Assembly: GCA_033584155.1 (NCBI GenBank)
Contig: CP138355.1
Location: 2,279,826-2,303,825, forward strand
Source of the DNA: Candidatus Electrothrix scaldis
Lineage (GTDB): Bacteria > Desulfobacterota > Desulfobulbia > Desulfobulbales > Desulfobulbaceae
Length of the DNA: 24,000 nt
Direction of reading: 5' to 3'
A program made the position numbers and the translations under genes. Of this stretch, positions 3,697 through 24,000 are shown piece by piece. Position 1 is the stretch's first letter. Every line of letters starts with the position of its first letter. The notes beneath the pieces were generated by a model. That model worked only from the letters and a program-made list of their open reading frames with translations. It had not been told where the DNA came from and did not search any database.

Positions 3697-3775
3697 ACGC
3701 TGCCAATAACGTTTTGCGGTGTGTCGCTGCTTGATGAGTTTTTTGAGAGGACTCTAGAAAAGAGTCTTGAGAGAT

Positions 3776-3795
3776 CCCGCCCCCGAAAGGGCGGG
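3776..3795 (-). other. GC-rich intercistronic stem-loop between the periplasmic-component gene and cbiQ
   Basis: CCCGCCC (3776-3782) pairs with GGGCGGG (3789-3795) around a 6-nt loop. No U-tract follows on the minus strand, so this looks like an attenuator or mRNA-stabilising hairpin rather than a full terminator. A second 6-bp hairpin, GACTCT-AGAAA-AGAGTC, lies just 5' of this stem-loop in + coordinates (about 3751-3767). Confidence 0.4.
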
Positions 3796-3833
3796 CATGT
3801 AACTTCTCTTCCTGAACGATAAACGAGGGGGGG

Positions 3834-4604: not shown

Positions 4605-4685
4605 CGGTTGTACTCCTTTTTTTACATCAGATATTATATTTGAGGATCAGAAAATACGATCCAGTTTTTTCCGACAGTGAATTTC

Positions 4686-5294
4686 TTATTCGGCTGTCGA
4701 GTTCTTCTTCTTTTTTTTGTTTGATTGTATCCAGGCAAAGAGAGCGGCCAGGCCGATAATACAGCCGATCCCGCCGACAATATCACGTGGGCGTACTTTT
4801 TTTTCCCGTGCTTCAGCTAATTGTTGTTTTATGGGAGTCAGTTCCCTTGTTAATTCCTGCCGCACTATTTCCCGGACAGTTTTTACATCCAGTGTTCCTT
4901 GGTTTGCCTCCACAACAGGAGAGTTTGTGGAGGCATCCGGCAGAAGGTATTCATCTGCTGTGAGGAGCCATTCTCCACGGTGCCCGTCCCCTGAGTTTGC
5001 TATGATCCGTAGATCAGCTTTTTGTTCTATAGCCTTTTGGGGTGGCGGAAATTGGAATTTTCCTTCTCTATCTGTCTCTACACTGAGAAGAACCGTGTCT
5101 GATTGAGCATTCTGAACCTGTATGGTTATATTCTTTGCCTTGCGTCCCCCACTGAAGAAAGCCTCACCATAGATCTGGTCACCTTCTGCCCAGGAAAATA
5201 TGTTCAGTTTATGTGCCCGGGCTGGTGATGCTGTCAGCAGACTGAACAGGCAGATGAGAACGACAAATATTCCATGAAGAGAAGGTCTCTTCAT
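4686..5294 (-). CDS. bitopic periplasmic protein, NikL-like accessory component of Nik/Cbi ECF transporter
   Basis: Signal peptide ..LLTASPARA followed by HKLNIFSWAEGDQIYGEAFFSGG. It has a C-terminal TM anchor IVGGIGCIIGLAALFAWI plus a Lys-rich tail. Its ATG overlaps the cbiM stop (ATGA at 5291-5294), which suggests translational coupling. Confidence 0.55.
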   Translation of the reverse strand: MKRPSLHGIFVVLICLFSLLTASPARAHKLNIFSWAEGDQIYGEAFFSGGRKAKNITIQVQNAQSDTVLLSVETDREGKFQFPPPQKAIEQKADLRIIANSGDGHRGEWLLTADEYLLPDASTNSPVVEANQGTLDVKTVREIVRQELTRELTPIKQQLAEAREKKVRPRDIVGGIGCIIGLAALFAWIQSNKKKKKNSTAE

Positions 5295-5893
5295 GCGTAC
5301 TTGAGGTGGAGGATTTCAGGCTGTACCTTGGCAAGGAAGCTGACCGTAAACATGGTAATACATCCCTCAATGATCATGATCGGGAGGTTTGCAGCAACAA
5401 TAAGTTGGGCCGCTGCCATGAAGCCTGTGTCTGTCAGGGCAAGAGCGCAGGAGGTCAGGAGTGAGGCCAAGAGGATAGCGAAAAAGCCTGCAAAAAAAGC
5501 AGCTAGAGAACGTGTTTTCGGGTTATCCATCCAAGGACGGGTGAGGTAGTAACAACAAAGGGCTGGGGCACCCATTGTTACTGTATTTACACCAAGAACG
5601 GCAAATCCCCCGAATTGGAAAAACAGGGCTTGCAGAAAGAGGGCAACCAAGATCGCCGGAAAAGCTGCCCACCCGAGCATTACCCCAAGGAGACCGATTA
5701 GCATCAAATGCACGGAACCTGGGCCGAGCGGTACATGAACAAGTCCAGCAACAAAAAAGGCTGAAGAGAGAAGGGCGACAGGCATGATCTCATCAATATC
5801 AATTTTTTTCAAGCCGATAACGGTACCTATTGCAGCTATAACGCCACCACTTATTAAAACTGGTGCGGAAAGAATGCCTTCTGAAATGTGCAT
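5291..5893 (-). CDS. cbiM: ECF transporter substrate-capture (S) component CbiM/NikM
   Basis: The conserved mature N-terminus MHISEGIL.. starts at 5893; Met1-His2 belong to the metal site in CbiM/NikM. The track ORF extends to 6022, but that 43-aa extension is not CbiM-like. The rest is a multi-TM protein. Confidence 0.85.
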   Translation of the reverse strand: MHISEGILSAPVLISGGVIAAIGTVIGLKKIDIDEIMPVALLSSAFFVAGLVHVPLGPGSVHLMLIGLLGVMLGWAAFPAILVALFLQALFFQFGGFAVLGVNTVTMGAPALCCYYLTRPWMDNPKTRSLAAFFAGFFAILLASLLTSCALALTDTGFMAAAQLIVAANLPIMIIEGCITMFTVSFLAKVQPEILHLKYA

Positions 5894-6206
5894 GGGAATC
5901 ACCGGTAATATTTTTTTAATGTTTGTAACACTAAAATCCTGTTTACTATAAAGCAGAATGCTTGTCAAGCTGTAGGTAAAAAATGCAAAAGAAGGATCTT
6001 TTTCGTAGGGAAAATGGGGCACTAAATATTTTTTGAAGAATTTATATTAAAAAATACGGTAATCAAGCCGGTTACAAAGGAAGGGAAGGAGAGATGGAAT
6101 GCAATGCTGTGTAGATAATATTCTGTTTTTTTGCCGTTATTTTGTGTTGCGCTCCTGTGTAATTGGGTAGGGAAAGATAGGGTTAACAGATCATGCAAAA
6201 AAAATA

Positions 6207-6942: not shown

Positions 6943-8004
6943 TTAGTGCTGAAAACGCAGGCCGATACCAAAACGTCCGTACTGATCAATATCACTCATC
7001 TCGTCAACAGCACTTCGGGCTTCCAGGAATACGGAGATATTGAAAGCATTGGGATCTCCGTACACGCGAGCACCTATATTGGCGAGAACGTCAAGGTCGG
7101 AATCATCGGAATCAAGATCGCTGTCATTATCAGTGATCCAACCACCGAGACCCAGGCCGACAAAGCCATCAAAGGCTCCAGACCAGTTATACTGAGCAAA
7201 AACATCAACAAGTAATGCATCATCGCCGTCTGAACCGTCCAATTTAGGAGCAGCTCCTGCCATTGCCAGGAAGGAGAGATTCTCAAGCGAGGTGCCTGCA
7301 AAGGGAGAATATTGAACACCCAAGCGGGCAAAGAGATAGTCTGCTGGATCAGAGAGACGCAGGTAACCAAGGTCGCCAACAAAGCGCAAAGGGCCTATTG
7401 CCAGATCTGCTTCTGTGTCTTCTATCTCGTCGGTGTCTGTATCATCGACAACGTCAGTCGGCAAACACTCAGCAGGAACTCCCTGGCATTCAGCCGGGCA
7501 ACCTTCCTGATCCTTGGTATCGTCTACGCAGGATTCAGGGCAATCTGTGGGAAATTTATCACAGATATTACAGCCCAATTCATCGCATACAGGAGGACAA
7601 TTCTCACCTTCAGGGTTTTCAATACATTCTACAGAACAATCATCACAGCTGTAACATTTTATGTCACGACAGATATCCGGACAACCTTCGCCGTAGGGAT
7701 TCATTTTACATTCCGGAGTACAGTCCTCGCAGGATTGACAACTGATATCCTTGCAGATGTCTGGGCATCCTGGACTATAAGGATTCATTTTGCACTCGTC
7801 TGAGCAGTCGTCGCAGGATGCCTGGGATGCCTGACATGCCGGATCTTTACATACAGATGGACAGCCCTTGCCATAAGGATTCTCCAGACATTCATCTGAG
7901 CAGTCATCGCAGGTATAGGCTTTGCCACCGGCAAAAGCAACACCTGTCGACAACAGGACGAAAACAGCACCCTGTGCCAACACTTTCAGTCTCATTGTTC
8001 TCAC
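6943..8004 (-). CDS. secreted cysteine-rich tandem-repeat protein with C-terminal beta-barrel-like (outer-membrane?) domain; unknown family
   Basis: AAGGAGAG RBS. Signal peptide MRTMRLKVLAQGAVFVLLSTGVAFA/GG. 30 Cys fall between residues 32 and 180 in about 28-aa repeats, followed by an acidic linker. The C-terminal ~150 aa consist of alternating-hydrophobic strands with Asp-rich loops and end GIGLRFQH. Confidence 0.8.
   Translation of the reverse strand: MRTMRLKVLAQGAVFVLLSTGVAFAGGKAYTCDDCSDECLENPYGKGCPSVCKDPACQASQASCDDCSDECKMNPYSPGCPDICKDISCQSCEDCTPECKMNPYGEGCPDICRDIKCYSCDDCSVECIENPEGENCPPVCDELGCNICDKFPTDCPESCVDDTKDQEGCPAECQGVPAECLPTDVVDDTDTDEIEDTEADLAIGPLRFVGDLGYLRLSDPADYLFARLGVQYSPFAGTSLENLSFLAMAGAAPKLDGSDGDDALLVDVFAQYNWSGAFDGFVGLGLGGWITDNDSDLDSDDSDLDVLANIGARVYGDPNAFNISVFLEARSAVDEMSDIDQYGRFGIGLRFQH
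7570..7911 (-). repeat. in-frame tandem coding repeats (4 units of 84-96 nt) encoding the 6-Cys module
   Basis: The units start at Cys32, Cys64, Cys92 and Cys120. Consensus: C-[DE]-D-C-[ST]-x-E-C-x2-N-P-[YE]-[GS]-x-[GN]-C-P-x-[VI]-C-[KRD]-[DE]-x2-C. A degenerate fifth unit extends to 7462. Confidence 0.8.
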
Positions 8005-8126: not shown

Positions 8127-8296
8127 CAGAAAAAAACAACAAGCAGCTATAGCGATGTTTTTCGGCCCTGAAAAAGCTTTGCAGGTGAAAAATACAAATA
8201 GCAGTTGCTTTTGACTTCCCAGGGGCTACAGTAAAATGAACAGTATGTTACTGCGTGGTCAACAAATGGGTTGTTTTTTGTTTTTCTTTAACAGGT

Positions 8297-8920
8297 ATGG
8301 TGGAAATGAAAAAGATACCTCTCCTCACCGGGCTACTTTGGTTGCTTATATGTCTGGGGCACAGCTTTTCTTTCGAGTTGATCAGGCAGGATGTTGTTCA
8401 ATTCCCCTTAGCCCTCCTTCTCTCTATTCTTTTACCAGTGAGCTTCTGGCTGCTTGCCAAGGGTGAGAAACAGCGATATCTTGCCCTGCTTTTTGTCGGG
8501 ATATTTATAATCAACACTTCCTTTCTGTTCATTATCATGCGCGGCAGTTTTGCCACCAAGCAGCAAATGACTGAGCAGCTCAAGGCGGGAATACAGCCAG
8601 ATCTGGCAGAATATCTCATTACCGCTGTGAGTGCTCATAAACGACAGATTGCAGCCCGGCTTATTTATCAGCTGCATGGGGTGGCCTTACCCTTTAAAAA
8701 CGATGCCGGTGGCTATACCTTATATGAACCCGACAAGGCCGATAAGGAAAAATTTCAAAAGAATTTTTTCGCCCAGAATGACCTGAAACTGAGACAAGGA
8801 GGCTTTGCAGCGTCTTTTGCCACAGCAACACTTTTGATGTTGATTCATGTCGGGCTGTTTATTGCCTTACTGGTTTTTTTAGTGCTTTATGATCAGGGAA
8901 AGCTGGAAAGAGATGAGTAA
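8297..8920 (+). CDS. hypothetical integral membrane protein (about 4 TM with a ~100-aa soluble loop)
   Basis: The ORF is open 8255-8920. Likely starts are ATG 8297 (MVEMKKIPLL) or 8306. Hydrophobic segments: IPLLTGLLWLLICLG, FPLALLLSILLPVSFWLLA, YLALLFVGIFIINTSFLFIIM and FAASFATATLLMLIHVGLFIALLVFLVLY. I recognised no motif. Confidence 0.6.
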   Translation: MVEMKKIPLLTGLLWLLICLGHSFSFELIRQDVVQFPLALLLSILLPVSFWLLAKGEKQRYLALLFVGIFIINTSFLFIIMRGSFATKQQMTEQLKAGIQPDLAEYLITAVSAHKRQIAARLIYQLHGVALPFKNDAGGYTLYEPDKADKEKFQKNFFAQNDLKLRQGGFAASFATATLLMLIHVGLFIALLVFLVLYDQGKLERDE

Positions 8921-13554: not shown

Positions 13555-14361
13555 TTAAGATGCTTCGGAGCCTGAAACTGCGACACCGGTTTTTATTTCC
13601 AGTATGACATCAAGAGGGAATCCAGTGGTTTTGGCTATAATATCAGGAGCAATCCCCTCCTGAAGTAAAGCCTTGGCAACAGAGAGCTTGCCCTCGTCAA
13701 ACTGTGTTTTTTGGAGTTCTTCCTGATGATACTCTTCAATCATCCGCGCACGTTCAGCAGGTGAGATCCGATTCTTCTGGATGTGCTCAAAGAGTTTATG
13801 AATCTCTGGTCGAGTATAGCATTTTTCATCAACTTCTTCATCCAACGTGTCATTGATTGCCTGCAACCATTCCCGATAGGGTTCCGGTGTGTCGTCACTT
13901 ACATATTTCGGGCAGAGATAGATAATCTTATGCGGAATTTCTTTTAGAGGGTGGCCTGATAAATCGTGAGGATCAAAATCTGTAATTGCGATGTCTGTTT
14001 TATGACGGTCACCGGAAGTCAGAACCACAAGGGTGTACACCTTGAGTGGTGGATGATAATCTTTTGAATTTGCAATCTGCTCCAATAAAGCGACACAGTG
14101 ATAATAAAGAAACCTGTCGTAATGATCAATGCTGCGGGCATGCTGAATATCAACGATGACACGGTGTTTCTTGTCTTCTGCAAACAAATCAAAACGCGGT
14201 GCGACATAACCTATGGGAGAATTAAATTCTTTTTCGGTTTCAACCTGTTCGATTTCCAGAGTCAGCCCCAGTATGTCTTGAATAAATGCGGCAAAGATCT
14301 CCGGGTCACAGAATGCTTTTTTAAAGACAACTCCGTATCGTAATGATGCCACATGTTTCAT
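13555..14361 (-). CDS. PD-(D/E)XK nuclease family transposase / Rpn-like recombination-promoting nuclease
   Basis: MKHVASLRYGVVFKKAFCDPEIF..FDLFAEDKKHRVIVDIQHA.. shows the PDDEXK_2 pattern D..(D/E)xQ. The C-terminal helical tail reads ..AKALLQEGIAPDIIAKTTGF. The 19-codon N-terminal extension in the track runs into the IS terminal repeat, so I start the gene at ATG 14361 (GAGG 11 nt upstream). Confidence 0.7.
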   Translation of the reverse strand: MKHVASLRYGVVFKKAFCDPEIFAAFIQDILGLTLEIEQVETEKEFNSPIGYVAPRFDLFAEDKKHRVIVDIQHARSIDHYDRFLYYHCVALLEQIANSKDYHPPLKVYTLVVLTSGDRHKTDIAITDFDPHDLSGHPLKEIPHKIIYLCPKYVSDDTPEPYREWLQAINDTLDEEVDEKCYTRPEIHKLFEHIQKNRISPAERARMIEEYHQEELQKTQFDEGKLSVAKALLQEGIAPDIIAKTTGFPLDVILEIKTGVAVSGSEAS

Positions 14362-14383
14362 TGAGATTAACCTCGTATTTTTA

Positions 14384-16121
14384 CCTAAATTGAGCGATTC
14401 ATGGTCTGGGTAAAGCAATTCCGGTAAGAAAAGCTCAATTTTTTAAAAATTGGTTCTCAGGGGAAAACAAAAACACCTCTGAATATAGCTTTTCTTCAGA
14501 TCCGTTACGTTTTGGGGCCAATTTCCGCAGTTTTCATGAAAATTGGGCGCACTTATCCTGTCTGAATTCAAATTGAGAATTGCCAGAGATGCTCACCTAG
14601 TGTTGTAACACAGGGGGCTCAATACACCTTTTTAACATTTCGGCTAATTGAAGCCCTTCAAAAGCACACCGGGCCACTTTTAATACAACCTGACCGCTGT
14701 GCCTGACAATTTTACCCGCTACATCTATCAGTTGACGGCGCACTGTTGATGCATAGGCTGTTATTGAAACTACGGGAGAAGCTGCATCCTCTTTGAATGA
14801 TTCAAAAAGAAAAAAGCCGACCAGTAGCATGTAATACCACGCAGCGTTTGGAGTGAATCGAGTGAACGGCAGTTGTTCATGGCCAAAATCCTTGAAACCT
14901 CGGTTAACCAACTCGTCGCTACCGCGTACATGATACCCTGCAACAATAGCGTTGGCACTTACATATTCTGACATAACTCCCGCCTTTTCAAGAAGTTCGT
15001 CAATAGTTCCGCCACGCCCAAGATTTGTAATGATCACGGTGTCTGGACCAGTTCCTGGAAGCCGAAGCTGAGACCCGTGGTTGCACAGGCGACAGTATAT
15101 AGCACGTCGAAATTGCTTCCAATTACCCCTTTTAGTGTCGAATTCCGCATACTCCCAAATATCTTTCTTACCGGGTGCGGCAAAACGCCTCCAACGGGTT
15201 GTCTCACTTGCAAATTCTTTTATATCTTTATACATCTTCCCACCACAGATATAACCAACACCAAGTTGCTCACAAGATTCAAAAAATCTTCTGGTCGAAA
15301 AAACCACTGTCCATTCGGATAACAATCGGGACATCATGTCGATATTCCTTTCTGATGCGATTCACAATATGCAATATCATTTTTTGGACAGTGTCACCGT
15401 GATTCGAGTGCTTATCACCACCGCGAAAAACCGCATCTACAAAAAATCTTCCCCAGTTCATCTGTAACGGCTGGAATCCTTTCTTTTTTTTATAGGTCGG
15501 TTTTACTCCATGTCGACACTCTGCGTCATCGTTTTCCATAACCATTGTATCAATGCCGAGTTCAACAACGGCTGGCTTGGTTATATTCAATCGCCAAATG
15601 AACAGTTTCTGCAGCAGACGTCGAAAAACAAACACTTTAACAAAAGAAAAATTGCCGAAAAAACGCTTGATTGTATGCGAGGAGGCCATGTCATCCTCTG
15701 ATGTCTCTATACAGGCGGCATAGCCCTTATCTGCCTTAAGATCGTCAAAGTACACCAGATGTCGACTGGTTCCGTCCATCATGAAACAGAATATCTGCTT
15801 GAATATCTCAACCGCCGATGCACCTTTTTTGCTTTTTCTCAGATCGCCGAACAAACTCTCAATAATAGGGAATAATGAAATACCATGCAGGTACGCTATA
15901 AAAAGAGACAGACCTGACCGACTGGTCAAACAGTCGTCAGTTATGTCAATATAATTAATTTTCAGGTCACTTTTTCGATAGGTCGTGTTTTTTTTTCTTC
16001 ATGGTACTTCACCCGGAGGGTTGCAAATCAATTAAGCTGTAGTTCTTTACTTACATGAATAATAACATATGGTTGAAACATGGAAAAGGATTATTTTATA
16101 TCAAGAATCGCTCAATTTAGG
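14384..16121 (-). mobile_element. IS1380-family insertion sequence (1738 bp) with intact terminal inverted repeats and 5-bp target-site duplication
   Basis: IRL CCTAAATTGAGCGATTC (14384-14400) is the exact reverse complement of IRR GAATCGCTCAATTTAGG (16105-16121). Direct repeats TTTTA flank it at 14379-14383 and 16122-16126. The CC termini, 4-5 bp duplication and single long DDE ORF fit the IS1380 family as I recall it. Confidence 0.8.
14597..16002 (-). pseudogene. IS1380-family DDE transposase disrupted by two single-nucleotide frameshifts in homopolymers
   Basis: ATG at 16002 gives MKKKK..., which hits a stop after the A9 run (15988-15996 on +). Removing one A joins it to ..NTTYRKSDLKINYIDITDDCLTSRSGLSLF (track ORF 15279-15929). 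A second shift sits at the T6 run (15281-15286). Removing one T joins ..RMDSGFFDQKIF to ESCEQLGVGYICGGK.. (track ORF 14597-15337). DDE-type motifs: GIDTMVME, RMDSGF and ..GHEQLPFTRFTPNAAWYYMLL. The repaired length is about 467 aa. Confidence 0.8.
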
Positions 16122-16131
16122 TTTTAATGTG

Positions 16132-16176
16132 TCTGGCGGAAAGTCAGAAAAAAGCAAGTCTCTAGTAACGACAACT
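16132..16176. repeat. copy A of a ~45-bp dispersed intergenic repeat (copy B at 19636-19677)
   Basis: Copy A: TCTGGcggAAAGTCAGAaAAAAGCAAGTctctagTAACGaCAACT. Copy B: TCTGGtaaAAAGTCAGAgAAAAGCAAGT---tgaTAACGgCAACT. About 36 identical positions and one 3-nt indel, in the same orientation. Confidence 0.6.
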
Positions 16177-16183
16177 TTTTGAT

Positions 16184-16651
16184 TTATAAAATTTTTAAGA
16201 TGTTATTAATCAAAGATTTAGCATAAACTCTTCTTTTCTCTGCTTGCTGTATTATATATTCAATACCTTCCTTTGTTCCTACATCTGCCTTGGAGATATC
16301 GTCAACTTTATTAGCAAATAGACTCACTACCTCAAGTTGCTTTTCTGCTTCAAAATACTGGGTGTAGATTTTCCATTGTTCTTGAAAATAGTTCTTTTTT
16401 CGTTGTGGAAGAAATAGCATCAATTTTCTAGCAGCTTTATCTTCGTCTGGAAAAAATTGTGTAACGAGCGAACCTGGATCTTTTTTAGGGTCATCAAGCT
16501 GTTGTAGATGTGGAATAAATACCTCTTTGAAACTCAGTATCTCTCCTTTAAGAATTTTATCTAAATCCCATCTTTTGTTTATTCGGTGAGTAAGAAATAG
16601 AGTTAGTAAAACTCCTAAAATTGCACCTATAGATATTTTTAAATCTATCAT
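16184..16651 (-). CDS. hypothetical protein, N-terminal TM helix plus helical cytoplasmic domain; very AT-rich
   Basis: 155-aa ORF with N-terminal MIDLKISIGAILGVLLTLFLTH and a charged helical remainder. I saw no recognisable motif and no clear SD. It lies 38 nt downstream of the Rpn-fragment ORF. Confidence 0.5.
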   Translation of the reverse strand: MIDLKISIGAILGVLLTLFLTHRINKRWDLDKILKGEILSFKEVFIPHLQQLDDPKKDPGSLVTQFFPDEDKAARKLMLFLPQRKKNYFQEQWKIYTQYFEAEKQLEVVSLFANKVDDISKADVGTKEGIEYIIQQAEKRRVYAKSLINNILKIL

Positions 16652-16689
16652 CAGAATTTTTTAAAGTTATTCTTTGCCGTTCCGATTCA

Positions 16690-16992
16690 TCATTTCATCA
16701 GTCCAAGCCCCTGCTTCAATCCCTGAAGCTCTTCAACCGACAACCCTGTAATTTCCGCAATCGCTTCTATCTCCAAACTCCCGGAAGCAAGTAGTTTGAC
16801 CGCAACTTCTCTTTTTCCCTCAAGCTGCCCTTCCGTTCTCCCTTCGGCCCTTCCTTCCTCTTTTCCTTTCTTTTCCCCCTTCCTAAGACCTATGGTATAG
16901 GATGATTCCACCATGCTTGCCTGATAATGAAGATCGTGTTGGTAACGTTCATAAGCCTGCCGTTCTTCGTCGGACAGCTTCAATATATCCAA
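16690..16992 (-). pseudogene. C-terminal fragment of a PD-(D/E)XK/Rpn-family protein (nuclease domain missing)
   Basis: LSDEERQAYERYQHDL..KGKEEGRAEGRTEGQLEGKREVAVKLLASGSLEIEAIAEITGLSVEELQGL is the characteristic C-terminal tail of this family. The ORF begins at a TTG with AGGAG directly abutting it, and an in-frame TGA lies at 17011-17013. No N-terminal nuclease domain is present. Confidence 0.6.
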
Positions 16993-17268
16993 CTCCTGCT
17001 TGGCTTTACTTCACCCGATTTCATCATTATGAGGCCGGAAGGGTACCGGGAATCCTCTGCGTGTAGCGAGACGGGGATTACGAGTAAAGTAACAAGGATC
17101 AAGCTAAAAAATTTATTTCGTTTCATATTGTAGTATTACTTTGTTTTTACTTGAATTGACTGTTCAGTACCTTTTAGCCTTCAATTTAGCATATGCCCCT
17201 TAAGTTGTAGAGAGGCCTGACTGGACCTACGGGATAATAAATCAAGAGAATTGGTGATTCTTTTTGTG

Positions 17269-18864
17269 TTATTTCATATCTTTGGTTGAGTTTATTCTTC
17301 TCCGTAAGTGATATTTTTTTGGTAGCCCCTTAACTTGAACAGGCTCAAAGTGTTTCATAATATATTGCCAGAGCAATGTATGCGTATTTCGAAAACGCAA
17401 GTTCTCCCGCCCGTCAAGCGCCACATCCCCCAGAACGATCCAGTTGACGTTATTCGTTTCGACATCTGAAATTTGTTGGTGTTGATCAGCTTTTGAAGCC
17501 GTCCATAAAAAGTACGTGTCCCATAGAGGTGATTTTTTTTGTAAAATGGGATAAAATCCAGGCCAATGCGGAGCAATTAGCACTCCTTCATCTGGATGTA
17601 CTTTTGAGGCTACGACCTCCCTGACAGTGTGGATCAGGTTGGCAGTATATTTATGCAGCCAGAGTATATCTCCATGAATGTCCTTCTGGACAAATGAATC
17701 AGGAGTAGACAATTTCCGATAATATGGGCTGACCATAGCAATAGACAAAAAAGATAATATATAGACAACAATAAGGAAGCCTACTCCTACTTTTTTTATA
17801 TACACTTGTTTACAGAAAAATGGCAACGAGAGTAATCCGATTAAAAGAGGATGAATGGCTTGCGCGAGATGGTTGATATCAGCCCGGCTAAAGGCATGAT
17901 GCATATAAGGAATGCCTATAAAAACGGAGGCAATAATAACAGATTTCCGTCGCAGCTCTTTGGGGTGAATGAGTAGTGTGTATATTGATGAAAATATGTA
18001 GAAAGCTGGTAACAAAAGAAAGAAAACACCTGTAGAAATAAATTGAATGGCTGTTAGTGGGCTGGTATGTGAAATGTTTACCTTCCAGGGCCATGGTACA
18101 GGCAATGGAAGATTAGTACTTTTACTTTGTAACATGCCAGTGATGCTTTGTATAAACAGATCAAAAAAATCAGGAAGACCGATGAACATGAAAAGCATAG
18201 GAGAGTAACCGACAACGACCCCGATGTTCCATATCGCAAGGTGTTTGAAAAATCCATCTTTCCCAATTTTTAGCCATATAAACCCTATCAAAAGACAAAA
18301 TGATATACTTGTGTACAGTCCATGATTGCGTCCGAAAAAAGCTGATATGCCAACAAAGAAACCGGCAATAAAATGTCTTTTAAATGTTGGTCGCTCAAGA
18401 AGGATGATAGCAAAATAAACCGCCATCATTGCGAGACTTGATTCAAACAGTTTCCAACGAGGGTGCATCCAAATAAGGAGCAACACTCCCGCACTTACAA
18501 GTCCCCACCAGGAGTGAATGACTCGCCTTAATGCTAGTAAACCGCATAGCAATCCAATCGCCTGAAAGATTGCGGTCGAAAGACGAAGAGCGATGATCCC
18601 ATCTCCCAGGATAAATGAACAGGCTGCCCCCCAATAATAACGACCGGGATCGTATGACCGAAAGTCACGTAGTGGAACGTTGCCATCAATGGTCGCGAGC
18701 GTTCCATGCCAGAGAAAGCCTTCATCAGCTAGACCTATGCCGATGTTCCCTTGAAGCCAAAATGAGATTCCCACCAACGTAAAAGCAAGTAAAGCTGTGG
18801 TTAAACTGCTCGGAATTATTTGGTATACTTTGCAATGCAATGAATCTGTGATTACTGTTTTCAT
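17269..18864 (-). CDS. GT-C fold membrane glycosyltransferase (ArnT / PMT_2 / GT39-83-like)
   Basis: 531 aa with about 11-13 TM segments. The first periplasmic loop LADEGFLWHGTLATIDGNVPLRDFRSYDPGRYYW matches the DE..(aromatic)..G..P..PP/PG.YYW signature of ArnT/PMT-type polyprenyl-phosphate-sugar transferases. There is a ~150-aa soluble C-terminal domain. Confidence 0.65.
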   Translation of the reverse strand: MKTVITDSLHCKVYQIIPSSLTTALLAFTLVGISFWLQGNIGIGLADEGFLWHGTLATIDGNVPLRDFRSYDPGRYYWGAACSFILGDGIIALRLSTAIFQAIGLLCGLLALRRVIHSWWGLVSAGVLLLIWMHPRWKLFESSLAMMAVYFAIILLERPTFKRHFIAGFFVGISAFFGRNHGLYTSISFCLLIGFIWLKIGKDGFFKHLAIWNIGVVVGYSPMLFMFIGLPDFFDLFIQSITGMLQSKSTNLPLPVPWPWKVNISHTSPLTAIQFISTGVFFLLLPAFYIFSSIYTLLIHPKELRRKSVIIASVFIGIPYMHHAFSRADINHLAQAIHPLLIGLLSLPFFCKQVYIKKVGVGFLIVVYILSFLSIAMVSPYYRKLSTPDSFVQKDIHGDILWLHKYTANLIHTVREVVASKVHPDEGVLIAPHWPGFYPILQKKSPLWDTYFLWTASKADQHQQISDVETNNVNWIVLGDVALDGRENLRFRNTHTLLWQYIMKHFEPVQVKGLPKKYHLRRRINSTKDMK

Positions 18865-18912
18865 TAGATACCCTTCAGGTGAAGGATGGATGATATGTGT
18901 TACATTGAGTTT

Positions 18913-19136
18913 GGGTGCGGCTCTTCTGTTTTGATGTTAACATATTTATAATATATCAATTGTAGATTTCAAATTGAGTGTTATTCGCTCGAACCGCTCT
19001 ACTTTTAATCCGGTAAAAATAGACCCCATAATTACCACCACATTAACAGGAGCAGTTTAGACAAATAGCACTTAAAGTGAAATGAAGTATTGGCACTTTT
19101 TCAATACCCTAGCTTTGATTTAGAAGAGCCGCACCC
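18913..19136. mobile_element. 224-bp MITE-like non-autonomous element with 15-bp perfect TIRs and 9-bp target-site duplication
   Basis: TIR GGGTGCGGCTCTTCT (18913-18927) is the exact reverse complement of AGAAGAGCCGCACCC (19122-19136). Identical ATTGAGTTT repeats flank it at 18904-18912 and 19137-19145. There is no coding capacity inside. Confidence 0.75.
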
Positions 19137-19149
19137 ATTGAGTTTTCCA

Positions 19150-19524
19150 TCACCCTTTGCTGATAAAAAGAATACCTATCATGATAAAGAGCGCTCCTAC
19201 TATTTTGTGCATAGTGAGAGATTCATGAAAAAAAATAACACTGGCAAACATCATAAACGCATAAATGGAACTTAAAAAGGGATAGGCATAACTCAGATCA
19301 AATTCCGACATGACGAACATCCAGCTGACTCCAGCGCCAAACGTCGCGATAATTGCAGAGACAACCCAGGGGGTTAACAATAACGTTCCTATAAAAATGA
19401 TTTTCCCTAAATCATCTACAGGGAGTTCTCCGGCACTGTTGACTTGCCACTTTATAATAAGCTGACTATAAATTGAAAGAACAATGGTCGTAAAGACACC
19501 AATATATCCGATGGTGTTATTCAT
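19150..19524 (-). CDS. small 4-TM DMT/EamA-type protein, ArnE/ArnF-like (polyprenyl-phosphate-sugar flippase subunit family)
   Basis: 124 aa with four hydrophobic helices. ..DLSYAYPFLSSIYAFMMFASVIFFHESLTMHKIVGALFIMIGILFISKG resembles the EamA half-domain of ArnE/ArnF. It sits next to the GT-C gene. Confidence 0.6.
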   Translation of the reverse strand: MNNTIGYIGVFTTIVLSIYSQLIIKWQVNSAGELPVDDLGKIIFIGTLLLTPWVVSAIIATFGAGVSWMFVMSEFDLSYAYPFLSSIYAFMMFASVIFFHESLTMHKIVGALFIMIGILFISKG

Positions 19525-19635
19525 TTATTTTTTTTTATTGAGTTGTATAAATTTGTTATACAGTGAAGATGTGATATAATCCACAGGGTGCAAACCTGAA
19601 GATCGTATTTTGGTGAGGCTCTAACCGGCTGATGA

Positions 19636-19677
19636 TCTGGTAAAAAGTCAGAGAAAAGCAAGTTGATAACGGCAACT
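19636..19677. repeat. copy B of the ~45-bp dispersed intergenic repeat (copy A at 16132-16176)
   Basis: See copy A. It lies in the 203-bp gap between the carbamoyltransferase stop and the ArnE-like start. Confidence 0.6.
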
Positions 19678-19727
19678 CAGCAAGTTACGATACGAGTTTC
19701 CACGAAATTGAACTTCTTACGAAAGCA

Positions 19728-21410
19728 TCAACGGTTATACGACTGTTTTTGGAGAAGTGGAGCGCCGTTATAGTCGTGCTCGGTTTTTTCGACGATATAA
19801 TTTCCTAATACCAAACAATCCATGCCACAGCGGTAAAAGGTACGGAGAGCATCCTCAGGGCTACATACAATCGGTTCGTCTGATAAATTGAAACTGGTAT
19901 TTAAGAGAACGGGAACTCCTGTCAGTTTTCTGAATTCATCAATAAGAGTCCAAAACCGCAGATTCACTGCTTGACTGACGGTCTGGGGGCGTGCAGTGCC
20001 ATCGACGTGGGTCGCGCTGACCATTTCATGAATTTTTTCAGGCTTCACCTGAAACGTCAGTGTCATATAAGGTGAGTGAAAAAAATTTTCTAAATACGCA
20101 GGAGCATATTCTTCTAAAATAGAAGGTGCAAAAGGTCGCCATGGTTCTCTTCCTTTGACTTTTATGTTTATTTGGTCTTTCATATCAGGATTCTTAGGAT
20201 TGGCGAGAATACTTCTATGCCCCAATGCTCGTGGTCCCACTTCTAATCGTCCTTGAAACCAACCGATGATCTTGTTTGCCGCTAACATATTTGCAGTCTC
20301 TTTACAGACATTCTCAACATAGCGATACTTGCTGACGTTACACTTAACAAGAGCAGCTTCAATATCATCATGATGATATTCTGGCCCCCAGTAAGGGTGT
20401 GTAAAACCGATATCAGGTTTTTCCCCTTTTTTATCAAGATGCACTTGAATTGCAGCCCCTAATGCAGTTCCTGAGTCCCATGAAGATGGGTGGATATAAA
20501 TATGGTCGATGAGACCTGACCTCAGTAATGTGCCATTCATGGCACAATTAAGAGCGACTCCTCCTGATACACATACATTTCGCGATGTCGTTTTTTGAAC
20601 GGTCCACTCAAGCATCCGCAAAACGACCTTTTCAAGAGATGCTTGAGCTGTGGCGGCAATATCCTGACTCGTTTTGCTCATAGGGTTATGGGGATCGACA
20701 ACATGACCAACCCATCGCCGGTAGCGACGGTATTTTTCTCTGTTAACTGAGGGAATGGGTGTATCCCATTCAATAAAAGGCAGTCCTTGTGGATCAGGAG
20801 TGCCGAAGGATGCCAGCCCCATGACTTTATACTCGTCAGCATGGGGTTGAAAACCCAGAAGCCGGGTTATCCTTGAAAAAACATGACCCAAGCTGTTGGA
20901 ATTGCTGATTTCATGATAGTTTTTTATATTTGTTCCTTCGGCATAGCCAAGAAAACCGGCATTCTTTCCGCCAGAGCCATCCAAAGAGAGGATATTGGCA
21001 TGTTCAAACCCGGAACTATAAAAGGCTGTATTCACATGCGAAAGATGGTGATTAATAAAGAAGGGCTTTTTTTCAGAGATATGTCTGGGAATTTTGAACA
21101 TATGTCTTGTAAGGTGCATCGTAAAGAATCCGGCTGTCAAAACACCATACACAATAGGCTGACCGGTCAAATTAGGAATGATATTTTTCAAAAATTTATC
21201 GAATCCCACAGCGACATAATCAACATCCTGCCATGTTATTCCAGCCTTTTCCAAACAAAATATTATCGCCTGCTTTGGGAACATTCTCGGAGCAAACTTA
21301 ATACGGGCAAAACGCTCTTCTTCTGCCATCGCAACAAGTCGTCCATCAATGAGCAGGCAGGCTCCATTATCCTGCGAAATAGGGTGGGTTATACCAAGGA
21401 TAACCGTCAT
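19728..21410 (-). CDS. carbamoyltransferase, NodU/CmcH/TobZ family
   Basis: 560 aa. The N-terminus ILGITHPISQDNGACLLIDGRLVAMAEEERFARIKF and the stretches ..HHLSHVNTAFYSSGF.. and ..VSGGVALNCAMNG.. are typical of Carbam_trans_N. The C-terminal ..GHRSILANP....VDGTARPQTV....VLLNTSFN matches Carbam_trans_C. AGGAGGAAATT RBS. Confidence 0.88.
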   Translation of the reverse strand: MTVILGITHPISQDNGACLLIDGRLVAMAEEERFARIKFAPRMFPKQAIIFCLEKAGITWQDVDYVAVGFDKFLKNIIPNLTGQPIVYGVLTAGFFTMHLTRHMFKIPRHISEKKPFFINHHLSHVNTAFYSSGFEHANILSLDGSGGKNAGFLGYAEGTNIKNYHEISNSNSLGHVFSRITRLLGFQPHADEYKVMGLASFGTPDPQGLPFIEWDTPIPSVNREKYRRYRRWVGHVVDPHNPMSKTSQDIAATAQASLEKVVLRMLEWTVQKTTSRNVCVSGGVALNCAMNGTLLRSGLIDHIYIHPSSWDSGTALGAAIQVHLDKKGEKPDIGFTHPYWGPEYHHDDIEAALVKCNVSKYRYVENVCKETANMLAANKIIGWFQGRLEVGPRALGHRSILANPKNPDMKDQINIKVKGREPWRPFAPSILEEYAPAYLENFFHSPYMTLTFQVKPEKIHEMVSATHVDGTARPQTVSQAVNLRFWTLIDEFRKLTGVPVLLNTSFNLSDEPIVCSPEDALRTFYRCGMDCLVLGNYIVEKTEHDYNGAPLLQKQSYNR

Positions 21411-21438
21411 AATTTCCTCCTGTTGTCAGTCATTTCTC

Positions 21439-22977
21439 TCAGAGATGTGACCGCTGGCTTTTTCCCTTACGTTTTAACATATTGGTGACATGTCTGTGTG
21501 CTAGCATGAATAACACACTAAAACTATATCGAATGTCACCTGGGGTTCTAAATTTTGGCAGCAAACAATTGACAAATTTTTTTGGGTGGAGATAAAATGA
21601 AACCTTATGCAAGAGCCACCCCTGTGAAGCATTGAGTTGAATGGCATTCAATTCGTCCGCCGTGATTTCAAGAGTATCATGCCAAGCCCCGAAAATAAAC
21701 GACCCTTTCATACTCTCTTTTTCTAAAAGTTGCTCTTTGTGGTAGATGTCATATAATTCGGTTCCAATATAGGGTTGAGCCACAAAAAAATGAGCGAAGT
21801 CAAGTTGAGAGCTATAGGCAAATGCAACAGTTTCCATGATTTGTTCACGTGTTTCATAAGGGAAACCGATAATGAAGAATGCGCCTGTCCAATAGCCGAG
21901 TGTGTTGGCTTTTCGAACCAATCTGCTGACCTGATCTAAATCGACATTTTTTTGAATAAATTTAATAGTTTCAGCGTTGCCGCTTTCAACCGGCATCGTG
22001 AGTTTGTAAAATCCGGCCTGACGCATCTTGACAAGCAATTGCTCGTCATCTACCAACCAAATGCTTAAGCCAGCGATATTGCTAAATGCAATGTCTAATT
22101 TTCTGTCAATGAAATAGTCACAGAACGCATAAATTCGGTCTTTTTTGAGAATAAATTGATCGTCAAGAATGCAGAATTCACGGATACCATAGTCTGAGAC
22201 CAGCATTTCAATTTCTTTGACCACGTTGTCAATGCTTCGTGGTCTCCATCGACGTCTCCACAAATTTTTACTACAACAAAAGACGCATTGATAGGGACAA
22301 CCGCGGGAGGTCATGATAGTTGCAATGGGCTTTTTGCGGGAAAAATTGAACTGTTTATGATTCGTCCGCATATAGTGTTCCATATCAATAAACGCCCGAT
22401 CAGGGATAGGTAGACGATCCAAATCCTCAATAAATTCTCGATGAGGATTCATGACAACAGTATTTTCAGCATTTCGGAAGCATAAACCATCTACCGCAGC
22501 CAAACTCATTTCCCCGCGAAGCGCCCGTACCAAGTGCTCTAACGTAATTTCACCTTCATGACATACAATATAATCAATACAGGAATATTCATGGAGAATG
22601 GATTGAGCCTCTAAGGTGGCATGAGCGCCGCCTATCACAATAGGTACAGAAGGATAGAGTTCTTTTGCCATCTCAGCGACTTCTACCGCTTCTGCAAAAT
22701 ATCCTGAAAAACAACAGCCGATGCCGATAAGGTCAGGTTGATTTTTTTTCAATTCCTTATGAATGACTGTCTTGTCATGAACACCTTTGACATATAAGTC
22801 CCCTTGTTGTTTTGGGGCTTCGGCCCCCATCGCATACAGATCAAGAATGGATATGTGGATTTCATCCCGAAGTACCTGTCGCAAATATGTCGCCAGACTA
22901 ACTAAGCCTAAAGGTTCTGAAAGATAAATATTCGTATCTCGAACAGTAATATATGGGTGTATCAACACAATGTTCAT
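21439..22977 (-). CDS. B12-binding-domain radical SAM enzyme (class B rSAM, probable methyltransferase)
   Basis: The likely start is MNIVLIHPY.. at 22977, with AGGAGA 8 nt upstream inside the preceding gene. The N-terminal Rossmann/B12-like region reads ..DLIGIGCCFSGYF..VPIVIGGAHAT... The rSAM motif is SRGCPYQCVFCCS (CxxxCxxC). The track ORF extends to 23049. Confidence 0.8.
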   Translation of the reverse strand: MNIVLIHPYITVRDTNIYLSEPLGLVSLATYLRQVLRDEIHISILDLYAMGAEAPKQQGDLYVKGVHDKTVIHKELKKNQPDLIGIGCCFSGYFAEAVEVAEMAKELYPSVPIVIGGAHATLEAQSILHEYSCIDYIVCHEGEITLEHLVRALRGEMSLAAVDGLCFRNAENTVVMNPHREFIEDLDRLPIPDRAFIDMEHYMRTNHKQFNFSRKKPIATIMTSRGCPYQCVFCCSKNLWRRRWRPRSIDNVVKEIEMLVSDYGIREFCILDDQFILKKDRIYAFCDYFIDRKLDIAFSNIAGLSIWLVDDEQLLVKMRQAGFYKLTMPVESGNAETIKFIQKNVDLDQVSRLVRKANTLGYWTGAFFIIGFPYETREQIMETVAFAYSSQLDFAHFFVAQPYIGTELYDIYHKEQLLEKESMKGSFIFGAWHDTLEITADELNAIQLNASQGWLLHKVSFYLHPKKFVNCLLPKFRTPGDIRYSFSVLFMLAHRHVTNMLKRKGKSQRSHL

Positions 22978-22981
22978 AATG

Positions 22982-24000
22982 TTACTTTTCTCCTGTTGAC
23001 AACAAATCCACGATGCTAAGTATGGACGTGACTTCTGGAAAGGCATCATGAATAGTGTTTTTTAAACTGGCAAAAAATTGTACGACCGACACAATAACAC
23101 AGCCGATCTCGTCTCGTTCAATGATCGTTGGCGATTCAATACATGTGCCAGACAGCGTTACCCCTTGACGAACAACAGAATCATCGACATAATGTATATG
23201 TCTAGCAATATCGCTGTTAATCTTTTTAGTGACGTGGTGAAAAAAATCATAGAGGTATGAATTTATTCCCCAAAATACAATATCTCCGTGTTGGTCAATC
23301 ATTCTCTGAACGCTTTCTGCTGCTCTTGCGACCACCTCCTCAACAATAGGGGCAGTATGCCTTCTGCCGCATTCAGAGCATATTAAACTGCTGGTAATAA
23401 ATAGGCGGACGTCTTTCCAGAGGTTTTTATACCCACAGGATACGCACTCACCTTCAAGTGTTATATGACCATTATGCCAGTGAATATTCAGGGTGTGACA
23501 TTCTGCCGGAATAGCTTGTGATTTCCTGGGCAAAGAGAGTATTTGACCAGCCAGCCATGCATGATCAGCATCGGACATTGTTGACAACTTGACGACAGGA
23601 CATGACTGCCTGATAAACTGCACCGGGTCTGAAATAATTCCTTGCGCTCTCGCATGCTCATAGAGCGGAGTCCCAGGATAGGTTACAAGCATACTTAATT
23701 GCAATTGATAGTGACTATGCTTTTTCCACCATTCAAGCGTGTTGTAAGCGGTCTGTCGGGTTTCTGCCCTGTCTCCGAAAATTAAGTTGCCTTGTATACC
23801 GATACCTGACCGGTACGTTAATTTTAACGCCTTTTCAGATTGTTCAATGGTAATGCCTTTCTGCATACTTTTTAAGACAGTATTATCAGCGCTTTCAATG
23901 CCTAATGAAATCGTGCTGCAGTTGGCATCTTTTAACATTGTCAGAACATCTCTTGAAATATCAGAGACTCGAAATTGTGCCCACCATTTCACCTCATATT
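22982..24000 (-). CDS. radical SAM family protein, C-terminal ~339 codons (5' end outside window), with Cys4 zinc-ribbon-like and Rossmann-like C-terminal extension
   Basis: The frame is open to the window edge (..YEVKWWAQFR..). The late rSAM core reads ..LKDANCSTISLGIESADNTVLKSMQKGIT..GIQGNLIFGDRAET... The tail carries CVSCG..(x17)..CSECG, then DIVFWGINSYLYDFF..IHYVDDSVVRQGVTLSGTCIESPTII..CVIVSV. The CxxxCxxC motif itself must lie beyond 24000. Confidence 0.65.
   Translation of the reverse strand, partial: YEVKWWAQFRVSDISRDVLTMLKDANCSTISLGIESADNTVLKSMQKGITIEQSEKALKLTYRSGIGIQGNLIFGDRAETRQTAYNTLEWWKKHSHYQLQLSMLVTYPGTPLYEHARAQGIISDPVQFIRQSCPVVKLSTMSDADHAWLAGQILSLPRKSQAIPAECHTLNIHWHNGHITLEGECVSCGYKNLWKDVRLFITSSLICSECGRRHTAPIVEEVVARAAESVQRMIDQHGDIVFWGINSYLYDFFHHVTKKINSDIARHIHYVDDSVVRQGVTLSGTCIESPTIIERDEIGCVIVSVVQFFASLKNTIHDAFPEVTSILSIVDLLSTGEK

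Follow-up and report, generated by a model that had tools for sequence, protein, structure and literature searches.

What do two radical S-adenosylmethionine (SAM) enzymes, a carbamoyltransferase, a small transporter and a large membrane protein do together, when their genes are packed on one strand of a bacterial genome? The question is raised by a 24,000-nucleotide stretch of DNA from Candidatus Electrothrix scaldis GW3-3 (hereafter the window, meaning the whole stretch that was analysed), which ends in five such open reading frames (ORFs). In the original prediction, made from the letters of the window alone, they were read as a pathway in which a lipid-linked sugar is tailored, flipped and transferred. 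We found that the five ORFs are the 3' half of a nine-gene operon, and propose, with a probability of roughly 70%, that this operon is a mobile cassette running a three-component periplasmic glycosylation pathway of the Arn/Gtr type, with a tailored amino sugar. The earlier reading gained from the finding of an aminotransferase and a family 2 glycosyltransferase (GT2) upstream, and from the predicted folds of the two membrane proteins, GT-C for the large one and SMR-like (small multidrug resistance) for the small one.

The nine-gene operon and its products

The five minus-strand ORFs were found where the original prediction had placed them, the fifth running into the window end (Table 1). A 12.1 kb contig, L001, found by exact-protein match, is identical to the window across an overlap of 3498 nt and runs 8.6 kb beyond position 24000. 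It supplies four and a half further genes, so that the 5' part of the cluster does lie beyond the window, as had been supposed. All nine genes are on one strand, in the order given in Table 1, with successive gaps of 5, 17, 40, 107, 4, 28, 203 and 285 nt. The 4-nt and 28-nt gaps agree with those first reported, the ATG of the 512-aa gene being at 22977. At both of these junctions a ribosome-binding site had been described as embedded in the upstream gene; this holds for the first, where GGAG lies within the 3' end of that gene, but not for the second, where AGGAGG lies in the 28-nt spacer.

Upstream of the aminotransferase gene are housekeeping genes (crcB and a livM-like permease). Sugar-activating genes or a precursor of a ribosomally synthesised and post-translationally modified peptide (RiPP) had been guessed for the upstream region. 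The former are there, as the aminotransferase and a GtrB/ArnC-type GT2, whereas no RiPP precursor, antibiotic-type gene, polysaccharide polymerase or exporter was found in the upstream region on L001. Within the 32.6 kb examined there was no Wzx/Wzy, no Wzm/Wzt, no initiating transferase, no nonribosomal peptide synthetase or polyketide synthase (NRPS/PKS) and no inosose synthase. A known O-antigen, capsule or antibiotic locus, which the original prediction had itself named as the alternative, was rejected on account of their absence from these 32.6 kb. An Rfam scan returned no RNA families and ARAGORN no tRNAs, and a scan for promoters and terminators gave no excess over shuffled sequence, so that it tells nothing about the operon structure.

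The aminotransferase scored 566 bits against PRK11706 (cut-off 375) and 534 bits against TIGR02379 (cut-off 435) in NCBIfam. It passes the equivalog cut-off for dTDP-4-amino-4,6-dideoxygalactose transaminase, a match that does not tell the C4 configuration of the product, and among PDB sequences it matched Escherichia coli WecE (4piw) with E=4e-126. Judged by these matches, it is a WecE-type dTDP-4-keto-6-deoxyglucose 4-aminotransferase. The nearest solved relative of the ATP-grasp ligase is uncharacterised, and the 377-aa oxidoreductase was assigned to Gfo/Idh/MocA at the family level only. The GT2 matched GtrB (sll0501, 5ekp) over residues 12-316 (E=1.3e-50) and ArnC over its full length (E=2e-46), and has hydrophobic C-terminal segments at 243-261 and 271-299. 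It scored below the ArnC and PgfS equivalog cut-offs of NCBIfam, so that its donor specificity differs from theirs or cannot be assigned.

Both radical SAM proteins carry the Pfam B12-binding and Radical_SAM domains with a CxxxCxxC motif, and are on this basis class B (B12-binding) radical SAM enzymes. The original prediction had recognised the 512-aa protein as such, but had taken the window-edge ORF for a plain radical SAM enzyme. Inside the window the Radical_SAM match of that ORF spans only profile positions 91-164, the second half of the domain, which indicates truncation by the window; the N-terminal B12-binding domain and the CPFRCTFC cluster motif of the complete 606-aa protein both lie outside. 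Neither enzyme passed the cut-off of any named class B subfamily (HpnJ, BchE, PhpK/Sden_1168, ApyD, GenK-like), the best NCBIfam scores being 185 bits with Sden_1168 for the 512-aa protein (cut-off 575) and 160 bits with HpnJ for the 606-aa protein (cut-off 578). The reaction type is therefore not assignable from these scores. Identities as an HpnJ-type hopanoid enzyme, BchE, a P-methyltransferase or a RiPP methylase were rejected, as the scores were far under the cut-offs and no hopanoid, phosphonate or precursor-peptide genes were found. The nearest solved relatives are AprD4 and TokK, and the similarity to characterised members is only remote. The commonest reaction of class B enzymes is the methylation of unactivated carbons; ring contraction, dehydration and others are also known.

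The carbamoyltransferase matched Carbam_trans_N with 160 bits (positions 2-346 of 346) and Carbam_trans_C with 235 bits (1-170 of 170), both above the cut-offs, and TobZ in the PDB with E=1.7e-98. It is not a NodU orthologue (163 bits, cut-off 1000). With both domains at full length, the sequence is that of a NodU/CmcH/TobZ carbamoyltransferase with a Kae1-like N-domain and a YrdC-like C-domain, as had been thought from the start.

The small transporter has four hydrophobic segments. Its Pfam EamA score of 28.0 bits was just under the cut-off of 28.2, EamA was present in all 26 homologues (26/26), and these are labelled 'EmrE-like' or 'EamA family'. The best NCBIfam matches were ArnF (46.5 bits, E=4e-12, cut-off 99) and ArnE (32.5 bits, E=8e-8, cut-off 92). 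The AlphaFold2 (AF2) model had a mean confidence (pLDDT) of 87, and its top 10 Foldseek matches were all EmrE or Gdx, with template modelling (TM) scores of 0.5-0.76 and probabilities of 0.85-1.0; the E-values were weak (0.17-1.4), as expected of a 124-residue helical bundle. By predicted fold and EamA-type sequence it is a four-helix transporter of the SMR or drug/metabolite transporter (DMT) type. The earlier label of an ArnE/F-like DMT protein was right as to kind, given the SMR fold and the ArnF and ArnE best matches, but not as to orthology: the protein lies below both equivalog cut-offs and comes from one gene instead of the two of the ArnE/ArnF heterodimer.

Last in the operon comes the 531-aa protein, in which residues 19-374 form about 13 helices and residues 385-525 an alpha/beta C-terminal domain. 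It had no match in Pfam, NCBIfam or PDB sequences, and a profile of 32 sequences of its family found nothing in Pfam or PDB sequences (phmmer/hmmsearch). When the 32 members were scanned singly, the only signals were sub-threshold ones to PMT_2, with E=2.1 and with E=5.5e-4 (20.6 bits, cut-off 26.1). The AF2 model (pLDDT 90, predicted TM-score 0.90) matched in a different way. In a Foldseek search against the PDB, ranks 1-28 were all GT-C structures, 21 of them with E<=1e-3 and all 28 at probabilities of 0.99-1.00; beyond rank 28, all matches but one dropped under a probability of 0.25. ArnT (5f15) came first with E=1.5e-6, and STT3, AglB, DPY19, AftA, PglB, ALG12, Pmt4, AftB and Emb were also among the matches. 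The modelled protein has the GT-C fold, and its fold is probably of the ArnT/PMT/STT3 structural class, in a family without described sequence relatives.

The original call of a GT-C enzyme with an ArnT/PMT loop thus stands for the fold and for the motif LADEGFLW...PGRYYW at residues 44-79, in which most positions show 90% conservation or more, or no variation at all, among family members, but not for membership of a sequence family; the match to GT-C families, on which that call had been made to depend, is by fold only. Where the first outer loop starts, residues D47-E48 show a conservation of at least 90% and may be catalytic. The family itself is large. It gave more than 1163 word-indexed matches, every one of them named 'hypothetical' and lacking a Pfam domain, and 911 representatives at 50% identity (E<1e-30). 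Its members were found in 363 species genomes, among them Desulfonema, cyanobacteria, Paenibacillus, Cohnella, Nitrosospira, Pseudomonas, Verrucomicrobia and Planctomycetes, and also in the Gram-positive Metasolibacillus. Longer members inspected for fusions had no additional domains.

Gene neighbourhoods, proposed pathway and acceptor

Eighty genome loci holding a member of the 531-aa family were searched over 10 kb on either side with all nine proteins, and all ORFs of these loci were clustered. The aminotransferase (47-61% identity) was within this distance in about 45 of the 80 loci, directly adjacent in 17, and on the same strand in 40 of 46 cases. The GT2 was found similarly, in about 40-45 loci. 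The small transporter was near the family in at least 17, and the trio of GT2, transporter and GT-C protein recurred in at least 17. In the E. scaldis operon these three are co-located on the same strand, which is the gene arrangement of three-component periplasmic glycosylation systems of the Gtr/Arn type. Variable tailoring genes were present near the family (SAM methyltransferases, WbqC, hexapeptide and GNAT acyltransferases), and Wzm/Wzt ABC polysaccharide exporters stood beside it in about 15 loci.

The exact set of five genes was found in only one other place, a near-identical sister contig (metagenomic, Ga0450804_2264011), so the co-conservation expected by the original prediction applies to two overlapping sub-modules, which occur more widely, and not to the set as a whole. 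The first is the one described above. The second includes the 512-aa radical SAM enzyme, orthologues of which (66-77% identity) adjoin GT2, carbamoyltransferase and small-transporter genes in other lineages. Two loci, L094 and L098, hold together the ATP-grasp ligase (60-65%), GT2 (45%), 512-aa radical SAM enzyme (66%), carbamoyltransferase (77-78%) and transporter (70-71%); L098 additionally holds the aminotransferase (49% identity), and L093 the three-gene core. In Candidatus Parabeggiatoa (L090), the GT2, radical SAM (69%) and transporter (69%) genes are grouped. A metagenome scan with the carbamoyltransferase returned three loci only. Judged by these similarities, a conserved donor-building module is joined to interchangeable transferases.

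Large proteins encoded after the flippase gene in L090, L097, L098, L003, L068 and L091 were considered as members of the 531-aa family and rejected (negative by blastp and hmmsearch, and for the two L090 proteins by hhalign as well). In one such large membrane protein (586 aa), the first helix is followed by a similar acidic motif, 'LDVTDTGFFL'. A planctomycete locus (L084, 10052-13155) has two tandem paralogues of the 531-aa family after genes for the aminotransferase, the GT2 and an ATP-grasp with 62% identity to that of the cassette, so that the ATP-grasp variant of the donor module pairs with the family in a distant phylum too. A family of membrane proteins of about 750 aa, with no Pfam domain, often follows the module of GT-C, aminotransferase and GT2 (L003 11583-13829, L068 15763-18015; 15 of 80 loci). 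It may be a second uncharacterised envelope-glycan enzyme, and is absent from the window.

We propose the following pathway. The WecE-type aminotransferase would convert dTDP-4-keto-6-deoxyglucose of the host to a dTDP-4-amino-4,6-dideoxyhexose, and the ATP-grasp ligase may acylate the 4-amino group with a carboxylic or amino acid. The ligase is the candidate for this step because it is located where most related loci carry a hexapeptide or GNAT N-acyltransferase. The GtrB/ArnC-type GT2 would load the sugar on undecaprenyl phosphate. Tailoring of the sugar, or of its N-acyl group, would take place on the cytoplasmic side, in whatever order and on either the nucleotide-linked or the lipid-linked form. 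The candidate enzymes are the Gfo/Idh/MocA oxidoreductase, the TobZ-type carbamoyltransferase and both B12 radical SAM enzymes, and the changes are probably O- or N-carbamoylation and the methylation of unactivated carbons. The 124-aa SMR-like protein, as a dimer, would flip the lipid-linked sugar. The 531-aa enzyme, which to judge by the GtrB/ArnC-type GT2 of its operon would use a polyprenyl-phosphate-linked sugar donor, would then pass the sugar on, beyond the cytoplasmic membrane, to an acceptor that is most likely a surface polysaccharide. It is the association with Wzm/Wzt that points to surface polysaccharides, and since the cassette moves between species without acceptor genes, the acceptor is presumably one that recipients already make.

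Several observations weigh against this pathway. The genes rmlA and rmlB, required for the precursor, are not within the cassette, and no genes for acceptor synthesis are nearby. Only in the window and the sister contig does the 531-aa family occur together with the radical SAM, carbamoyltransferase and oxidoreductase genes, and the large membrane protein beside the donor module in Beggiatoa-like loci is unrelated to the family in sequence. No GT-C family resembles the 531-aa protein significantly in sequence, the TM-scores of its model to solved GT-C structures are only about 0.5, and the small transporter falls below the curated family cut-offs. Finally, class B radical SAM enzymes also perform non-methylating reactions.

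A bolder form of the proposal is possible, though doubtful as a whole. Here the product would be a sugar not seen before: the ATP-grasp ligase would N-acylate a 4-amino-4,6-dideoxyhexose, the two cobalamin radical SAM enzymes would C-methylate it (or rearrange it in another way), and it would be carbamoylated. The 512-aa enzyme, at least, would act at the membrane on the sugar linked to undecaprenyl phosphate, as suggested by the place of its gene between the GT2 and flippase genes in Beggiatoa-like relatives. For the 531-aa family the general role, across hundreds of species, would be to attach N-acyl-4-amino-4,6-dideoxyhexoses to glycans or proteins of the envelope. The conserved donor module and the swappable transferase would circulate as mobile surface-variation cassettes among filamentous sulfur bacteria of sulfidic sediments, cable bacteria included.

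Other acceptors have to be weighed against a surface polysaccharide, and lipid A in this host or a protein, as for PMT enzymes, is possible. With lipid A or its core as acceptor, the pathway would resemble Arn in purpose, an amino sugar, possibly with a free aminoacyl amine, altering surface charge and the resistance to cationic compounds. The series of aminotransferase, GT2, SMR-like flippase and GT-C enzyme mirrors ArnB, ArnC, ArnEF and ArnT, the last being the top structural match of the 531-aa model, and a self-contained cassette with no polysaccharide genes near it needs an acceptor that any recipient makes. However, the match to ArnT was no better than those to STT3, AglB and DPY19 (E within about 10-fold, TM about 0.5), and the family often adjoins Wzm/Wzt exporters. 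It occurs in the Gram-positive Paenibacillus, Cohnella and Metasolibacillus, all without lipid A, so that lipid A cannot be its general acceptor. Moreover, the cassette has no ArnD-like deacylase, and carbamoylation removes positive charge. We therefore regard lipid A modification as unlikely.

O-glycosylation in the manner of PMT, with the sugar going to Ser/Thr in proteins of the periplasm or the surface (pilin-like, PEP-CTERM or fibre proteins), appears quite unlikely, in spite of a resemblance in the first loop. PMT proteins carry a 'DE' motif, which the conserved Asp-Glu opening loop 1 recalls; PMT_2 was the sole sequence echo to a known family, and Pmt4 and oligosaccharyltransferases were among the fold matches. 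But the PMT_2 signal was sub-threshold and came from one or two members only, no candidate acceptor gene was found in the window, and the association with Wzm/Wzt favours glycans. In two unrelated loci a prepilin-type (N_methyl) or PEP-CTERM protein is encoded upstream of the GT-C homologue, adjacent to it in L004 (8868-9890) and one gene removed in L006 (8185-9075). These neighbours could be protein acceptors, but the instances are anecdotal. A surface polysaccharide is accordingly kept as the acceptor in the pathway that we prefer.

Surroundings and recent transfer of the cassette

As first noted, the cluster is AT-richer than its flanks (41.7% GC, versus 48-49%). The comparison with the sister contig, which covers window positions 16979-24000 and L001 3205-8618, revealed three levels of identity. 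It was 99.0% over 10.3 kb, from 9 nt before the ATG of the aminotransferase gene to just after the stop of the small-transporter gene, about 92-95% over the next 1.9 kb (the GT-C gene plus 290 nt; in blastn, 18912..16979 corresponds to sister 13830-15767), and only 81-85% in the flanking genes. Synonymous divergence (dS) was 0.005-0.053 in the first eight genes and 0.098 in the GT-C gene, versus 1.15-1.63 in the flanking miaB, livG and regulator genes. Such low values in the cassette, next to saturated flanks, indicate recent horizontal exchange, and the transfer of a functional cassette is thus well supported, in agreement with the horizontal acquisition originally suspected. All nine ORFs are intact in both genomes. 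The ratio of non-synonymous to synonymous divergence (dN/dS) was 0.03-0.32 in seven genes and 0.54 in the small-transporter gene, which has one synonymous and two non-synonymous changes. The GT2 gene has seven non-synonymous changes versus one synonymous, too few to conclude positive selection.

The step in identity between the donor module and the GT-C gene falls in an intergenic spacer that also holds an insertion resembling a miniature inverted-repeat transposable element (MITE). This suggests that recombination has acted separately on the transferase and on the donor module. The element has terminal inverted repeats of 14-15 bp (GGTGCGGCTCTTCT) and a 10-bp target duplication, AAACTCAATG; the sister contig keeps the empty site, in a 52-nt spacer, and no second copy was found in the 32.6 kb examined. 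The gene order is livG-miaB-cassette-GH127-HAD in the sister and livM-cassette-(144-nt GH127 remnant)-mobile zone-livG-miaB-HAD in the window. The GH127 gene, which follows the GT-C gene in the sister, is truncated here at a rearrangement breakpoint. A simple insertion into the liv operon was considered and dropped; because the sister cassette lies on the other side of livG-miaB, a rearrangement associated with an insertion sequence (IS) is preferred.

Ca. E. aestuarii has an identical copy of the neighbouring sigma-54 regulator. At 90% identity, the clusters of the GT-C protein and of the carbamoyltransferase contain only E. scaldis and the one metagenomic sister, and homologues of the GT-C protein with identities from 57% to 95% were not found. 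It seems from this that Ca. E. aestuarii, a very close relative, does not carry the cassette; it would then offer a natural comparison for glycan analysis. A near-identical cassette amid saturated synonymous divergence elsewhere makes a clean case of recent cassette exchange.

Could the genes be adjacent without functional coupling, or form a decaying island assembled by mobile elements? The surroundings would suit this, with an IS, Rpn-like genes, the MITE and the truncated GH127 gene around or inside the region, and so would the drop in sister identity at the spacer before the GT-C gene, the higher dS of that gene and the excess of non-synonymous changes in the GT2 gene. Yet nine ORFs have stayed intact in two genomes, most junctions measure 4-40 nt, dN/dS is well below 1 in seven of nine genes, the sub-modules recur in distant lineages, and the MITE, being in a spacer, leaves every ORF uninterrupted. 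We hold this explanation to be very improbable, and keep to a cassette that works as one pathway.

The mobile elements announced by the original prediction, below the cluster and inside it, are the IS and the PD-(D/E)XK genes on the low-coordinate side and the 223-nt MITE (Table 1). The IS transposase (DDE_Tnp_1_4) is split into overlapping ORFs, 15279-15929 and 14597-15337, and is either a frameshifted pseudogene or subject to programmed frameshifting. A full-length Rpn-like relative follows the flippase gene in L093 (3652-4506), and such recombination-promoting nucleases may travel with the cassette or help to move it. At the other end of the window, positions 2941-6022 hold an energy-coupling factor (ECF)-type cobalt/nickel uptake set (CbiM, a 202-aa protein, DUF4198 and CbiQ), conserved in the sister contig. 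This set deserves mention as two enzymes of the cassette need cobalamin; no cobalamin riboswitch was detected by the Rfam scan. Cable bacteria also rely on nickel, for their conductive fibres. Three other ORFs of the window have no Pfam match: 364-1524 (386 aa), which contains an exact 17-nt direct repeat 180 nt apart (654-670, 834-850), 6943-8004 (353 aa) and 8255-8920 (221 aa).

Table 1. Products of the operon in 5' to 3' order, then the insertion and other features on the low-coordinate side; positions refer to the window unless L001 is named.
Feature	Position	Strand	Remarks
Aminotransferase, 381 aa			First gene of the operon
ATP-grasp ligase, 392 aa
GT2, 324 aa	L001 5561-6535		GtrB/ArnC-type polyprenyl-phosphate glycosyltransferase
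Gfo/Idh/MocA oxidoreductase, 377 aa
Class B radical SAM enzyme, 606 aa	22982..24000	-	C-terminal 338 codons in window; complete ORF L001 7817-9637
Class B radical SAM enzyme, 512 aa	21439..22977	-	B12-binding + Radical_SAM, CPYQCVFC; starts 4 nt past upstream stop
TobZ/NodU-type carbamoyltransferase, 560 aa	19728..21410	-	AGGAGG 6 nt before ATG
SMR/EamA-like protein, 124 aa	19150..19524	-	Putative polyprenyl-phosphate sugar flippase; four transmembrane helices
Integral membrane protein, 531 aa	17269..18864	-	Putative periplasmic glycosyltransferase, GT-C fold; WPD24883.1, annotated 'hypothetical'
MITE-like insertion, 223 nt	18913-19135	.	Region 18903-19145; spacer between transporter and GT-C genes
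End of segment shared with sister	16979..17268	-	Includes ~144 nt (~16979-17123) homologous to GH127 5' end
Mobile/scar zone	13555..16992	-	Low-coordinate side of cluster
PD-(D/E)XK (Rpn-like) C-terminal fragment	16690-16992		Abuts GH127 remnant, marking rearrangement breakpoint
Orphan ORF, 155 aa	16184-16651		No Pfam match; in mobile zone
IS, 1.74 kb	14383-16122		21-nt inverted repeats, 95% complementary
PDDEXK_2 gene, 287 aa	13555-14418		Full length; Rpn-like

Comparison with known systems

Antibiotic resistance, serotype and susceptibility to phages are under the control of three-component periplasmic glycosylation systems (Arn, Gtr, mycobacterial arabinan, GT136). For the 531-aa family, the cassette leads to a testable prediction of the donor, an N-acyl-4-amino-4,6-dideoxyhexose on undecaprenyl phosphate. 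It would also link B12 radical SAM chemistry and TobZ-type carbamoylation, so far from antibiotic pathways, to the decoration of envelope glycans. In the bolder form of the proposal, doubtful as a whole, the action of the 512-aa enzyme on the lipid-linked sugar would bring radical SAM tailoring into a periplasmic glycosylation pathway of this type for the first time, and the 531-aa protein would found a new GT-C family in CAZy. The host is an uncultured cable bacterium, to whose biology an unusual envelope, bearing conductive fibres, is central. The original prediction knew of no described pathway that combines these functions, and the literature search, which included the two E. scaldis genome papers, found no description of the enzyme combination, the 531-aa family, a periplasmic transferase for Fuc4N or viosamine, or the locus.

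The wider set of tailoring enzymes has its counterpart in aminoglycosides, in which GenK/GenD1 class B radical SAM methyltransferases, a GenD2/GenS2-type oxidoreductase with a DegT aminotransferase, and TobZ tailor amino sugars. The carbamoyltransferase of the cassette is close to TobZ. However, the aminoglycoside enzymes act on soluble pseudo-oligosaccharides, whereas the context of the cassette is lipid-linked and its radical SAM enzymes are only remotely similar. Although the enzyme set recalls gentamicin and tobramycin tailoring, with its TobZ match and with AprD4 and TokK as nearest solved radical SAM enzymes, a cluster for an antibiotic of the aminoglycoside or nucleoside type, with a soluble product and membrane proteins for export or resistance, is the least credible of all explanations, given a GT2 of the membrane-anchored polyprenyl-phosphate type, an aminotransferase that is a WecE orthologue, the lack of any 2-deoxy-scyllo-inosose synthase, NRPS/PKS, regulator or resistance gene, and the presence of the GT-C and SMR-like genes with aminotransferase and GT2 genes in dozens of genomes without antibiotic-type genes.

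The periplasmic glycosylation pathway that we favour shares its first enzyme with the synthesis of enterobacterial common antigen (WecE/WecD, dTDP-Fuc4NAc). There, in contrast, the cytoplasmic WecF uses the sugar on a pyrophosphate-linked repeat unit, and it is not loaded alone on undecaprenyl monophosphate.

The steps proposed here resemble those of the Arn pathway, with a 4-aminotransferase of the DegT family, acylation of the amine ahead of the loading on lipid, a GT2 of the ArnC type, an SMR-like flippase and a GT-C enzyme. The sugars differ, UDP-Ara4N in Arn and a predicted dTDP-linked 4-amino-4,6-dideoxyhexose in the cassette. Arn uses the ArnA formyltransferase and ArnD, whereas the cassette has an ATP-grasp ligase and no ArnD, as well as one transporter gene versus two. 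Beyond Arn, the cassette has two B12 radical SAM enzymes, a carbamoyltransferase and a Gfo-type oxidoreductase, and its GT-C protein has no sequence similarity to ArnT (GT83).

The GtrA/GtrB/GtrC cassettes of Shigella and Salmonella phages are likewise compact, mobile and self-contained, and decorate an acceptor made by the host; the GT2 is a homologue of GtrB. In both, an acceptor-specific transferase is swappable beside a conserved donor module, and the acceptor logic proposed here, in which the recipient supplies the acceptor, resembles that of phage-borne gtr seroconversion cassettes. The differences are a flippase that is SMR/EamA-like and not GtrA, a donor that would be a tailored amino sugar and not glucose, and marks of mobility (IS, Rpn-like genes and MITE) with no phage genes seen here.

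The closest precedent for the way in which the 531-aa protein was recognised is ORF12-15 of Citrobacter youngae, in which a sequence-orphan GT-C enzyme, identified by predicted fold and gene context, founded GT136 and glycosylates an ABC-transporter-dependent O-polysaccharide after polymerisation (PMC11127046). The 531-aa family is likewise often beside Wzm/Wzt. The Citrobacter system differs in its pentose donor, derived from phosphoribosyl pyrophosphate (PRPP), in its MATE flippase, in a GT-C enzyme with a carbohydrate-binding module, and in having no radical SAM or carbamoyl tailoring. Such transferase families are still being founded singly, and the present locus points to a large GT-C family unseen by domain databases. 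Relative to Arn, Gtr and GT136, what is new in the cassette is the predicted sugar, the ATP-grasp step, the pair of cobalamin radical SAM enzymes with a TobZ-type carbamoyltransferase, and an unmatched family of transferases.

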